Of a stretch of 64,000 nucleotides of DNA, positions 14,636-18,983 are shown one piece after another; the first letter of the stretch is position 1; every line of letters starts with the position of its first letter. The notes beneath the pieces were generated by a model, which ran no database searches, had not been told where the DNA came from, and saw only the letters and a program-made list of their open reading frames with translations. Both the position numbers and the translations under genes were made by a program. Origin of the DNA: Naegleria gruberi (lineage: Eukaryota); the NCBI GenBank assembly GCA_000004985.1, contig GG738891.1; one strand, 5' to 3'.

Positions 14636-15216
14636 GTTTACAAAATTCTCATAATTATTTGAGAAAATGGAAAAGAATTCTTGTAAATAATTGTTTTAAT
14701 ATGAAATAAAAAATGACAAATTCAACAACTCCAAAACAACCCTACAGAAGAGGAAGAAATTTTTTCACTAGAGCACTGTTTCATCCGAATACTTATTATC
14801 TGGTGCAATATGGTGGTTTGCTCACAATTTCTTATTTGATTTTAATTAAAACAAATTGGAAAGAAGGAACAATATTTTATGATGTGAGTTTTTGAAGAAT
14901 GAATTAGTGTACAATAATAATATCGGAAATTGGATTTTAATATTCATCATCATCTATTATAATTTATTTAATTGAATGAAAATATTTTGATTGAATTTTT
15001 ATCGGATTTAATTTTGATTGAATGATGTATTTAAATATTTGGAAATATTAATAATATTAATAACAATATTGGAAAAAATATAGTTTAAACAATATTTACA
15101 AGAAAAGAGAAGAAATTTACTTTCAATGAGTGAGGAAGAAATTCAAAAACAAAAGGAACTTCTCAAATTATCCAAAGAATCTAAATAGCCAATTATTATT
15201 AAATTATTTAAATCAA

Positions 15217-16648
15217 TTATTTTACATAAACTCTCTTCAATCTAGGTAATAAAGCAGTTACAACTTCATAGTTAATAGTATTGGACCAGTGTGACACCAT
15301 TTCACATGTCACTTCCTTACCATCTTGTTCACCAATTAAGACTACTTCATCATTGATTTTAACTCTATCTACAACAGTTGGAGAAATTTTAACTACAAAT
15401 TGATCCATGCAAATTCTACCAACTATTGGACACTCTTCACCTCTAATTAATACGTGGGCCTTACCAGTATTAATTCTCTTGTATCCATCTCCATAACCAA
15501 CTGGGACTAATGCAAGGGTTTCGTCATCCTCTGCAACTGTATAGGTATTTCCGTATGAAACTGGTGATCCCTTTGGGAATTTTTGAACTCTTCCAAGGTG
15601 CGAAACAACAGTGAGAGCAGGTTTCAATTTGAATGGAAGTCTTGGATCATCTCTATCATTACTTGGTGAAAGTCCATAAATTGAAATACCTGGTCTAATC
15701 ATATCCATGTGCATTTCTGGGAAGAATAGAGTTCCAGCACTATTGCAACAATGGTAAGTGAGTGGCTTTTCAAAAACTCTTGAAACTTGATGATTTTCAA
15801 TCATTTTCTTCACCTCCATGAATTTATAAAATTGCTCTCTCGTATAGTCTGGGCTCATCTCATCAGCACTTGAAAAGTGTGTAAATACTCCTGTAATTTT
15901 GATTCTATTGTACAATTTCATTGGATTAATAGTGAACCATCTCAAGAAATTTTCCAATTTTTCAGGATGAGCTCCAAATCTTCCCATTCCAGTATCAACC
16001 TTCAAATGTACATTAATGGTTTTATCTTGTTTTTCACATTCTCTAAACAGAGTTTCAACAATTAATCTACTGCCTGAAATAGTTGGAGTTAAATTGTAAG
16101 TGACACATTCCTTCACCTCCTCTGGAATGGCATAACCCAACACTAGAATTTCAATATTTGCATTTTCCTTACTCAAATTACTACGAATTTTAACACCTTC
16201 CTTCACTCTATTTACTGCAAATTGTTTAATTGACAATTCATTGTAAAGTTCCCTGACAACTGGTGTATCTCCGTGTCCTATAATATCATGAAATCATGAA
16301 ATTGGATTCGTCGTATGAGTGAAATTGTCATCACATCCGAAATTAATTTTTTCATCATTAACAAATATACATCATGAGAATATTTTCAACATCATGATTA
16401 AATATATTCCGATCCATAATTTACCTACCATAGGCATTGGCTTTAACCACTGGCATTACGTGAATATCCTGATTGTAGTTTTTAGCAAAATTTACAGTAT
16501 TTTCCACATTTTCAGTGATATTCCTCAAATTCACAATCGCACACGAAGTTGATTGTAGTTTTCGTGGCACATTGGACAAGGTTGTTCCCAAATGTTTTAA
16601 CAAGTTGGATGTTGTTGTTCCTTGTTTCATCATTTTTTTTCTGAGCAA
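15217..16648 (-). CDS. alr: alanine racemase (PLP-dependent, bacterial type), about 426 aa, 2 exons, with an N-terminal extension of about 45 aa
   Basis: Exons 16429..16648 and 15217..16277. The 151-nt intron has a GTAGGT donor and splits the Gly codon of the PLP-binding motif VVKANAYG/HGD. The C-terminal domain has the ICMDQFVV motif typical of Alr. Confidence 0.75.
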
Positions 16649-17282
16649 ATTGTTTGTTTACTTTCTTAAATTTGGACAATTTGTGAAAAGTTACTTATCG
16701 AGAGAAGATGATTGTAATTGCATTAGATTGGCATTGTTAATAGTGTGAATATTAAATGTTTATTTCAATAGATGTATTTATGAAATTGACTAATTCATGT
16801 TCATGTGAAAATTTGTGAATTTTAGTAGAAAATTGACTCAGTCAAGAAGAATTACACTCGTGAGGGTTGCAATCCTCTCAATAATATGGCGAATTTCATT
16901 TCATATTGAACTTTCACAATATGTTCATTGTAATCAAGTAATTTAATATATTTAAAAATCTTAACATTCAATCCTTTCCCATCTCTCAATTTAATCCATC
17001 CTCATGTCCCTTCCAAATTCTCCTATAATTATTCATCTCAATATTCTAAACATTTTCCTCCTCCCTAAACAGCAATTGCTTCTTCCTGAACATTCACCCA
17101 ACAAACCAACAGCAACAACAACCATATGAAAGATCATCATCCTCACCACCACCAACCAAGCAACCTTATCAACAAACCAATCAAGTCATTCACCACCCAC
17201 TCTCTATCCAACCACCAAATATCACTTCTTATCAAAAGACAAAGAAAAACCAATTGCTCTTGAATTTTTAAATAGATAAAAA

Positions 17283-18983
17283 ATGTTGTCATCATCATCG
17301 GGTGCTGATAATAACAACAAAAGCAGTAATAATAATAATAATAATAGAATGGATAATAGTACTAATAGCAATTGTAGCAACAACAACAACAGTAGCAACA
17401 GTAGCAATAATGTTGGTTTGGGAGGTTCTGGTAGTGCTCTGAAGGGATCGGAGGAGAAGAAGAAACAACAGGCTCCTATTAAAATTCTCAAGAAGAATGA
17501 TTTTAGACAGGATAATGATGAAGAGTTTTCAATGAGTCCAAAGTTAGTTACGAGAGGAGTTTTATCAGTTAAAATTCCACCTGCTAATGTTAATAGTAAT
17601 AATGGATCTCCCCTCCCTTCATATAAGAAGAGTTCAGCCTCGCCTTCAGCATCTTCACCACCAGCATCAGAATTATCTAAAGCTTTAGTATCATCGGAAG
17701 ATCATGATGGTCAAAGTCCATCACCAACAACATCTTCTTCTTATGAGGAGCAAGGAATTGCTGAAAATCATTTTATATTTCTTCCGAATCATAATGAATT
17801 GTTTAATCACTTTGCATTAGATATTGGTGGATCACTTGTCAAGATGGTTTACATGTTACCTTTTAGTGATAATGAATTTATTTATCAAACTCAAGATTCT
17901 GAAAGTAATGAACTTGAAGCTTATTATCATCAAGCTGTTAGTAGTGATGATGAAGAGGTTGATGGACAATTATCCATAAAATCACTTCCTCCACAATCAC
18001 CATTAATCATTTCAAAGGATGTTGATCATTTTTATGAATCTGAAAATGGTGTTAAAAAGAGAGGTTCTAAACTTTGTTTTGCTAGATTCCAAACACAAGA
18101 TATTGAACAATGTTTGAGTTTAATTGAAAAGTTACTGAAATTAGATGAATCAATAACTGGTTCATCAGAAGCTCCTTGTATTAAACATATTAATGCTACT
18201 GGTGGAGGTGCATTCAAGTTTTCAGCACTATTGAAAAATAGATTTGGTTTTGAAGTTAACAAGCTAGATGAAATGGAATCATTGATTAAGGGGTTAAACT
18301 TTTTATTGTTAAATATTCCAAATGAATCATTTACATTCACAAAGGAAAAGAAGAGAGAATACCTTTCTTTCCATGACAAGTTACATACAGATATTTTCCC
18401 ATATTTAATTGTAAATATTGGAAGTGGTGTGAGTATTGTTAGAGTTGATGATGTTGGTAAATTTGAAAGAGTTTCGGGAAGCAGTATTGGTGGAGGTACC
18501 TTCTGGGGTTTATCAAAATTATTAACAGGTTGTAATTCATTTGAGGAATTGTTGAAATTAACCAAGACTGGTGACAACAAAAAGGTTGACATGTTAGTTG
18601 GTGATATTTACGGAAGAGATTATGAAAAAATTGGTTTGAATTCTGATATTATTGCTAGTAGTTTCGGTAAAATGATTCAGTACAAAGCTGGAGAAGGTGA
18701 AGAACCAAAAGATGCCGATCTTGCTAAATCTTTATTATTTATGATTTGTAACAATATTGGTCAAATTGCCTATCTTAATGCTCTCAGATTTGGCCTTAAA
18801 AGAATATTTTTTGCTGGTTACTTTATCAGAAATCACGATGTCACAATGCACTACATTTCCTATGCCATCAACTTTTGGTCTAGGGGTGAAATTTCTGCCA
18901 CTTTTTTGAGACATGAAGGTTATTTGGGAGCAATTGGTTCCTTCCTTTCATCTCCTCAAAAAGATTCAGAAAATTCTGAATAA
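17283..18983 (+). CDS. pantothenate kinase (eukaryotic type II PanK), 566 aa, with a poly-Asn/Ser N-terminal tract
   Basis: Single exon. HFALDIGGSLVKMVYM matches the PanK/fumble ATP-binding motif DIGGTLVKLVYF. An acetate/sugar-kinase fold is present throughout. Confidence 0.8.
   Translation: MLSSSSGADNNNKSSNNNNNNRMDNSTNSNCSNNNNSSNSSNNVGLGGSGSALKGSEEKKKQQAPIKILKKNDFRQDNDEEFSMSPKLVTRGVLSVKIPPANVNSNNGSPLPSYKKSSASPSASSPPASELSKALVSSEDHDGQSPSPTTSSSYEEQGIAENHFIFLPNHNELFNHFALDIGGSLVKMVYMLPFSDNEFIYQTQDSESNELEAYYHQAVSSDDEEVDGQLSIKSLPPQSPLIISKDVDHFYESENGVKKRGSKLCFARFQTQDIEQCLSLIEKLLKLDESITGSSEAPCIKHINATGGGAFKFSALLKNRFGFEVNKLDEMESLIKGLNFLLLNIPNESFTFTKEKKREYLSFHDKLHTDIFPYLIVNIGSGVSIVRVDDVGKFERVSGSSIGGGTFWGLSKLLTGCNSFEELLKLTKTGDNKKVDMLVGDIYGRDYEKIGLNSDIIASSFGKMIQYKAGEGEEPKDADLAKSLLFMICNNIGQIAYLNALRFGLKRIFFAGYFIRNHDVTMHYISYAINFWSRGEISATFLRHEGYLGAIGSFLSSPQKDSENSE

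Follow-up and report, generated by a model that had tools for sequence, protein, structure and literature searches.

Alanine racemases (Alr) interconvert L- and D-alanine by a two-base mechanism, in which a lysine and, from the partner subunit, a tyrosine act within a head-to-tail homodimer with two shared active sites. In a survey of D-amino-acid enzymes across eukaryotes, transfers of such genes were found to be widespread (Naranjo-Ortiz et al., 2016; PMC5169069), and Supplementary Table 2 of that study lists the Naegleria gruberi protein D2VRE6_NAEGR under Ala_racemase_N, with Bacteria as donor and N. gruberi as acceptor. This event carries the comment 'Low similarity. May be ancient.' and was kept separate from the events in Schizosaccharomyces pombe, oomycetes, diatoms and trypanosomatids (PMC5169069). 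We analyzed the gene encoding this protein, referred to below as alr, in a stretch of 64,000 nucleotides from N. gruberi contig GG738891.1 (assembly GCA_000004985.1), which we call the window. The gene had been singled out there by a model working from the letters and a list of their open reading frames (ORFs), referred to below as the sequence-only reading, which took alanine racemase to be an enzyme of few eukaryotes; given the many transfers reported in PMC5169069, it is less rare than that implies.

The gene model (GenBank/UniProt) is already known, as is the bacterial derivation of precisely this protein (2016), and what is added here is a small new point, namely that intron positions in the gene differ between lineages. 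Taking all the evidence together, we consider it very probable that D2VRE6 is a nuclear alanine racemase obtained from bacteria by horizontal gene transfer (HGT), which gained its intron later and which most likely serves in D-to-L salvage, possibly in mitochondria.

Bacterial relatives and nuclear residence

The protein obtained by removing a single predicted intron from the minus-strand gene (Table 1) has 421 amino acids and matches EFC40656.1, XP_002673400.1 and UniProt D2VRE6_NAEGR at 100% identity over 100% of the length, in agreement with the one-intron gene of the sequence-only reading. Its public name is 'tentative alanine racemase [Naegleria gruberi strain NEG-M]'. Against Pfam, we detected Ala_racemase_N (PF01168) at residues 34-273 (E=3.7e-53, profile positions 1-220 of 220) and Ala_racemase_C (PF00842) at residues 290-419 (E=1.6e-40, profile positions 2-127 of 127), and no domain other than these two. 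The architecture of an N-terminal barrel binding pyridoxal phosphate (PLP) and a C-terminal beta domain is present, and the protein scored 324.7 bits against the NCBIfam equivalog TIGR00492 'alr', whose curated cut-off is 168.

When sequences of solved structures were searched, the best matches were all bacterial Alr. In the alignment with the Clostridioides difficile enzyme, whose residue numbering was confirmed by the K271T site of the 4LUY mutant, K64 lies opposite the PLP lysine K39 and Y310 opposite Y268; the catalytic tyrosine of the C-terminal domain, on which the sequence-only reading had made its interpretation depend, is present as Y310. An alignment of 50 sequences contained 52 invariant columns, among them those of K64, Y68, K161, R168, H202, R263, Y310, M359, D360 and Y405. 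The AlphaFold2 model, built as a monomer, reached a mean predicted local distance difference test score (pLDDT) of 87.7 and a predicted template modelling score (pTM) of 0.88, with pLDDT below 50 at residues 1-21 and 331-333 only. Its top Foldseek matches in the PDB were alanine racemases, with target-normalised template modelling (TM) scores of 0.84-0.88. By its domains and residues, N. gruberi alr is an intact two-domain gene, predicted to encode a PLP-dependent (fold-type III) alanine racemase.

A racemase of the same fold acting on another substrate or on several (serine as in VanT, lysine, histidine, or the broad spectrum of Bsr) is improbable. The structures of VanTg, Bar and BsrV were also good structural matches, and the model of the VanT-G catalytic subunit (vanT-G-Cterm) gave as much as 291.9 bits; this is however below its cut-off of 460, as were vanT-CELN (167.1 against 900) and vanT-L-cat (146.5 against 750), and the models for DadX (cut-off 600), the ornithine racemase Orr (cut-off 480) and MurF-Alr fusions each stayed below their cut-offs, whereas that of the alanine racemase equivalog was well exceeded. 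The top matches by sequence and by structure were all alanine racemases, and the tyrosine of the TINYE motif (Y405), which we take to be the residue that confines the active site to alanine and for which VanT has a different one, is invariant. A VanT-type serine racemase in particular was rejected, since the protein falls under all VanT cut-offs and, where full-length VanT has an N-terminal membrane domain, has an extension of only 22-30 aa with no extra domain.

To place the protein among its relatives, we ran a protein search and a search with a clade-specific profile, both with word pre-filters and both read over their best 120 matches, with EukProt among the sources of the profile search. 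The protein search was headed by three orthologues from heteroloboseans, at 64%, 63% and 47% identity, together with two environmental clusters; the remaining best matches were all bacterial, at 40-47%, and the named ones belonged to Anaerolineae or Chloroflexota. We then built an unrooted neighbour-joining tree (169 sequences, 371 columns, 200 bootstraps), in which the Alr of S. pombe, trypanosomatids and oomycetes are absent. The three Naegleria species grouped together in 200/200 replicates, with Willaertia in 199/200, and with the environmental sequences P0121, P0006 and P0152 in 196/200. In the full tree, the sister group of this clade was an Anaerolineae-like group, recovered in about one third (33%) of replicates. 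With a profile built from the seven-member heterolobosean clade, its own members scored 600-757 bits and bacterial sequences at most 464 bits; among the best 120 there was no further named eukaryote, and the named matches at 464 bits or less were all Anaerolineae or Chloroflexota.

These results bear on whether alr might instead be an old eukaryotic gene, inherited vertically and lost by most lineages, which we hold to be very improbable. The gene is older than the split of Naegleria and Willaertia, three environmental sequences extend its clade, and the 2016 survey allowed that the event may be ancient, all of which would suit such a history. Against it, the clade-specific profile found no other named eukaryote among its best 120 matches, Anaerolineae-type Alr are as close (about 44-47% identity) as the remotest members of the clade, and the lineages have no intron position in common, in keeping with an ancestor without introns. 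The phylogenetic check proposed by the sequence-only reading, in the form of this tree and of the profile search, accordingly gave no support to a broad, vertically inherited eukaryotic clade.

Alr of the Naegleria/Willaertia clade (196/200) is also encoded on environmental contigs of 1.4-1.8 kb with 38-44% GC (L004, JGI 3300026396; L005, JGI 3300057139; P0152, from Logan); these probably come from unsampled heteroloboseans or related protists. The ORFs called on them are shortened, and upstream in-frame Met codons add leaders such as MRKTILKQFHFDRCTQHKHRPTT. Synteny of L004 with Naegleria was considered and rejected, its 3' ORF being unrelated to the small gene found next to alr in Naegleria. 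Another environmental protein, P0153 (763 aa), consists of two tandem Alr-like modules, each with ADH or SYY in place of CMDQ, and is unrelated to the window.

The gene is physically integrated in a eukaryotic nuclear genome, as seen from its intron, its host composition, its flanking genes and its synteny. Relative synonymous codon usage (RSCU) of alr correlates at 0.932 with that of 26 long ORFs of the window (ORF-versus-rest mean 0.898, range 0.806-0.975), and GC content at third codon positions (GC3) is 0.270 for alr against a window ORF mean of 0.261. Pantothenate kinase (Fumble domain) lies on one side of the gene, and on the other a small conserved gene and, beyond it on the same flank, a uridine kinase/PRK gene. 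The order Fumble - Alr - small gene - PRK is kept in Naegleria fowleri (locus L001) and Naegleria lovaniensis (L002), and Willaertia magna (L003) keeps Alr - small gene - PRK without the pantothenate kinase; at the position and in the orientation of the small gene, all three carry a gene of 89-92 aa. This conserved synteny places alr in the common ancestor of these vahlkampfiids, and the gene is therefore older than the Naegleria-Willaertia split. Ten more long ORFs between positions 1 and 30754 are typically eukaryotic (among them an ABC transporter, an IBR domain, ankyrin repeats, HEATR5, a fucosyltransferase, CFA20 and a TFIID subunit).

An origin of the gene in bacterial contamination or in an assembly error is thereby excluded, and we give it practically no weight: nothing beyond the bacterial affinity of the protein speaks for it, and against it stand a spliceosomal intron, GC3 and codon usage indistinguishable from those of the neighbours, eukaryotic genes on both sides and the same gene order in three independently sequenced genomes. 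The horizontal acquisition and domestication proposed by the sequence-only reading, including its host-like codon usage, are thus upheld by the intron, the host codons, the eukaryotic neighbours and the bacterial nearest relatives. As such, alr is a clean textbook case of how a prokaryotic gene is domesticated in a protist.

Introns of alr across lineages

The (V/I)KANAYGHG PLP-lysine motif of N. gruberi Alr is whole only once the intron is removed: predicted splicing rebuilds VVKANAYGHG, and read-through gives KANAYGR followed by a stop. The sequence-only reading had described a 151-nt GTAGGT...TAG intron placed exactly inside KANAYG/HG. We found exactly this length and these ends, and the intron does lie in the motif; it does not however cut cleanly after the glycine, as it enters the Gly69 codon in phase 1 (KANAY-G/GA-HG). 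Its GC content is 26%, against 35-36% in the exons. The use of an alternative donor (GTAAAT, 4 bases downstream of GTAGGT) was rejected, as it puts exon 2 out of frame and leads into a stop.

We looked for features of the intron that might speak of its origin or content. No second copy was found within the 64-kb window, and a repeated 'introner' origin was discarded on this ground, the search being limited to the window. There was no Rfam match at E-values up to 1 and no unusual fold (z=+0.62); an intron-hosted small nucleolar RNA or other structured RNA was likewise discarded, given the lack of an Rfam match, the ordinary fold and the absence of a CUGA D box, although the intron contains several C-box-like UGAUGA strings. 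As a separate observation, the hexamer CATGAT (as TCATGAT) occurs four times in the intron against 0.08 expected, a count reached in just 4 of 12,770 segments when 151 nt at a time were scanned along the 64 kb.

We then compared intron positions between orthologues. The intron at KANAY/GHG is found in N. gruberi only; N. fowleri, N. lovaniensis and W. magna have none at this site. For N. fowleri and N. lovaniensis, a single-intron model failed, and a two-intron search gave one unique solution each. These two species have in common a first intron in phase 0 after YPEMHLDM (57 and 65 nt, respectively) and a second in phase 2 in CPVVG/RVCMDQ (81 and 62 nt), and N. gruberi alr is uninterrupted at both sites. 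The W. magna gene (JBEGDK010000054.1) is annotated as intronless in its public model; it contains a 51-nt in-frame GTAAGT...AAAG element with 24% GC in YP/EMH (L003 4773-4823), translated there as a 17-aa insertion, GKLLFVKDYNNNLCHNK. This insertion is seen in no other aligned Alr, and deleting it restores TLFYPEMHMDLVR as elsewhere; judged by its sequence, the element probably represents an intron that the annotation missed, at a fourth site.

Introns at four sites, the one in W. magna being a probable intron and none of the sites being shared between lineages, imply that the introns were gained after the transfer. An intronless ancestor, which the lack of any shared position fits and which is to be expected for a gene from bacteria, followed by independent intron gains, is the most parsimonious history. 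These differing positions offer a modest handle on the speed at which transferred genes gain introns in Heterolobosea. Going further, we would give an even chance to a wider proposal in which the locus is a small datable series of de novo intron gains after HGT, the TCATGAT repeats may bear on the origin of the N. gruberi intron, and mitochondrial import would feed prey D-alanine to pyruvate metabolism.

N-terminal leader and direction of the reaction

The sequence-only reading had proposed an N-terminal extension of about 45 aa. An extension is present, with a length of about 22-30 aa, because bacterial Alr structures align from query residue 28-32 (chain residue 6-10) and residue 34 is the first of the Pfam domain. 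Residues 1-30 contain four Lys or Arg, no Asp or Glu and 33% Ser or Thr, and 11 of them in a row have a high hydrophobic moment; the AlphaFold2 model leaves residues 1-21 disordered. Basic, acid-poor leaders are also present on the orthologues of W. magna (37 aa), N. lovaniensis (96 aa) and N. fowleri (116 aa). The composition of the N. gruberi leader may thus fit a mitochondrial presequence, and import into mitochondria is putative. The models of N. fowleri (L001 4001-4340) and N. lovaniensis (L002 4001-4290; both approximate) begin 96-116 codons before the racemase fold, with His-, Arg- and Ser-rich leaders in which internal Met codons are present; either these leaders evolve very fast or the models start too far upstream.

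As to the start of the N. gruberi protein, position 16648, from which the sequence-only reading had counted, is merely the first TTG of a mechanically called ORF, and the start is the ATG at 16633, with a TAA in the same frame 9 codons 5' of it. No upstream alr exon was found in the 649-bp intergenic region, which has stops in all minus-strand frames. A missing 5' exon giving a longer N-terminus like that of the N. fowleri model was rejected on account of these stops and of the lack of homology to the N. fowleri and N. lovaniensis leaders.

Naegleria is a bacterivore. We searched the literature on Naegleria for structures containing D-alanine, for the use of D-alanine, and for Ddl or D-amino-acid oxidase, and found no report; PMC4431377 and PMC9512073 mention Naegleria solely in contexts unrelated to D-alanine. 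The literature searches likewise yielded no enzyme assay of Alr from Naegleria. In free-living euglenozoans, Alr has been proposed to metabolise D-alanine freed from prey cell walls, and N. gruberi has a murein-degrading N-acetylmuramate-6-phosphate etherase (Butenko et al., 2020; PMC7052976). Because of bacterivory, the euglenozoan proposal, the etherase and the lack of reported D-alanine structures, Ddl or D-amino-acid oxidase, we favour salvage of prey D-alanine, possibly in mitochondria.

The opposite direction, in which the amoeba would make D-alanine for its own use (in the cyst wall, as an osmolyte of the kind known from some aquatic invertebrates, or as a signalling or defence metabolite), is unlikely, though it deserves more weight than the other alternatives. 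The Alr reaction is freely reversible, as established enzymology has it, and the catalytic residues are intact across Naegleria and Willaertia; a gene conserved with intact catalytic residues is maintained by selection for some purpose. Against production, a bacterial diet supplies D-alanine in bulk, the literature yielded neither D-alanine structures nor Ddl for Naegleria, and neither the flanking genes nor the ten long ORFs scanned between positions 1 and 30754 included a D-alanine-related or D-alanine-using gene, the second half of the window being unscanned.

For the favoured salvage by a transferred gene, the following course of events would be consistent with the data. An intronless bacterial alr would have been transferred into an ancestral heterolobosean, where its composition would have drifted to that of the host and each lineage would independently have gained its introns. 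The gene would also have acquired a short basic leader at the N-terminus, which may send Alr to mitochondria. As a homodimer using the Lys/Tyr mechanism, the enzyme would convert D- and L-alanine into each other, with net flux from D to L, such that D-alanine from prey peptidoglycan and teichoic acids would be salvaged to L-alanine and then to pyruvate. This agrees with the view that protists feeding on bacteria retain bacterial enzymes for digesting prey cell walls. The suggestion of a drug target made by the sequence-only reading found no support: N. fowleri has an orthologue of alr, and an enzyme of prey digestion is an unlikely target in an amoeba feeding on brain tissue.

Several points weigh against this account. 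The sister relation with Anaerolineae is weakly supported, being found in about 33% of bootstraps of an unrooted neighbour-joining tree, and that tree does not contain the remoter Alr of eukaryotes (S. pombe, trypanosomatids, oomycetes), the searches covering the best 120 matches. Racemase activity is predicted from family membership and removal of the N. gruberi intron from the sequence, and the flux direction, like the location within the cell, is what we infer. The leader is short (22-30 aa) and was scored just by its composition and hydrophobic moment. Being in frame, the W. magna element could instead be a real 17-aa insertion.

Neighbouring features and comparison with known racemases

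The features of the locus are collected in Table 1. The first exon of the small gene encodes MTNSTTPKQPYRRGRNFFTRALFHP...EGTIFYDV and is followed by a GTGAGT intron; the small gene had no Pfam match. The pantothenate kinase has a long Asn/Ser-rich low-complexity start (17283-17500, plus strand), which gives poly-Leu ORFs when read on the opposite strand; low-complexity coding sequence of this kind is typical of the N. gruberi genome. No tRNA genes were found in the window.

Table 1. Coordinates of alr, of its neighbours and of the introns of two orthologues. Positions are those of the window unless another locus is named.
Feature	Position	Strand	Details
alr exon 1	16429..16633	-	205 nt, ATG at 16633; residues 1-68 and first base of Gly69; codon of the PLP lysine K64 (AAA, 16444-16442); spliced product is XP_002673400.1 / D2VRE6
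N-terminal extension coding region	16544..16633	-	residues 1-30, MMKQGTTTSNLLKHLGTTLSNVPRKLQSTS; candidate mitochondrial presequence
alr intron	16278..16428	-	151 nt, GTAGGT...TATAG, phase 1, Gly69 codon
alr exon 2	15217..16277	-	residues 69-421 and TAA stop (15219-15217); codon of the catalytic Tyr310 (TAC, 15555-15553), motif VSYGNTY
Intergenic region	16634..17282	.	649 bp, shared with the divergent pantothenate kinase gene; presumably the location of the alr promoter and 5' untranslated region
Pantothenate kinase (Fumble domain)	17283-18983	+	divergent from alr
Small conserved gene	14713..15189	+	convergent with alr, stop codons 27 nt apart; synteny anchor
N. fowleri alr introns	L001 5057-5113 and 5398-5478		
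N. lovaniensis alr introns	L002 4994-5058 and 5343-5404		

Compared with the biosynthetic Alr of bacteria (TIGR00492; for instance C. difficile 4LUY/4LUS and Geobacillus stearothermophilus 1SFT), the Naegleria protein has the same TIM-barrel N-domain and beta-strand C-domain, and the motifs KANAYGHG, the SYG tyrosine, DTGMGR, THF and CMDQ are common to both; bacterial structures align to it in Foldseek at 31-34% identity with TM scores of 0.84-0.88. Unlike the bacterial genes, the Naegleria gene is nuclear, with a spliceosomal intron, a basic leader of 22-30 aa and AT-rich host codons. To our knowledge, the eukaryotic host has no peptidoglycan pathway for Alr to feed. The closest non-eukaryotic relatives among the best 120 matches are Alr from Anaerolineae/Chloroflexota metagenome-assembled genomes (among them P0007, P0012, P0017 and P0310), with 44-47% identity over about 93% of the length; these lack the N-terminal leader as well as the heterolobosean insertions, for instance those after THFSxADE and in the 'SPSNxxxDxRLPF' loop.

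Among eukaryotes, the alanine racemase of S. pombe is said, from work of 2001, to be catabolic and to let the yeast use D-alanine. Its Alr1/Alr2, the eukaryotic alanine racemase that has been characterised (Uo et al., 2001, cited in PMC5169069), are likewise bacterial-type Alr in a eukaryote, described as a 'well known HGT event' (PMC5169069); they represent a separate transfer event in that survey and were not among the best 120 matches of either the protein or the clade-profile search. The trypanosomatid genes K4DT16_TRYCR and A4HD32_LEIBR are also listed as separate HGT events (PMC5169069), and no euglenozoan sequence was among the best 120 of the clade-profile search. In biology, the free-living Euglenozoa with Alr (PMC7052976) nevertheless resemble Naegleria, with the same supergroup, Discoba, the same bacterivory and the same proposed role in the use of D-alanine.

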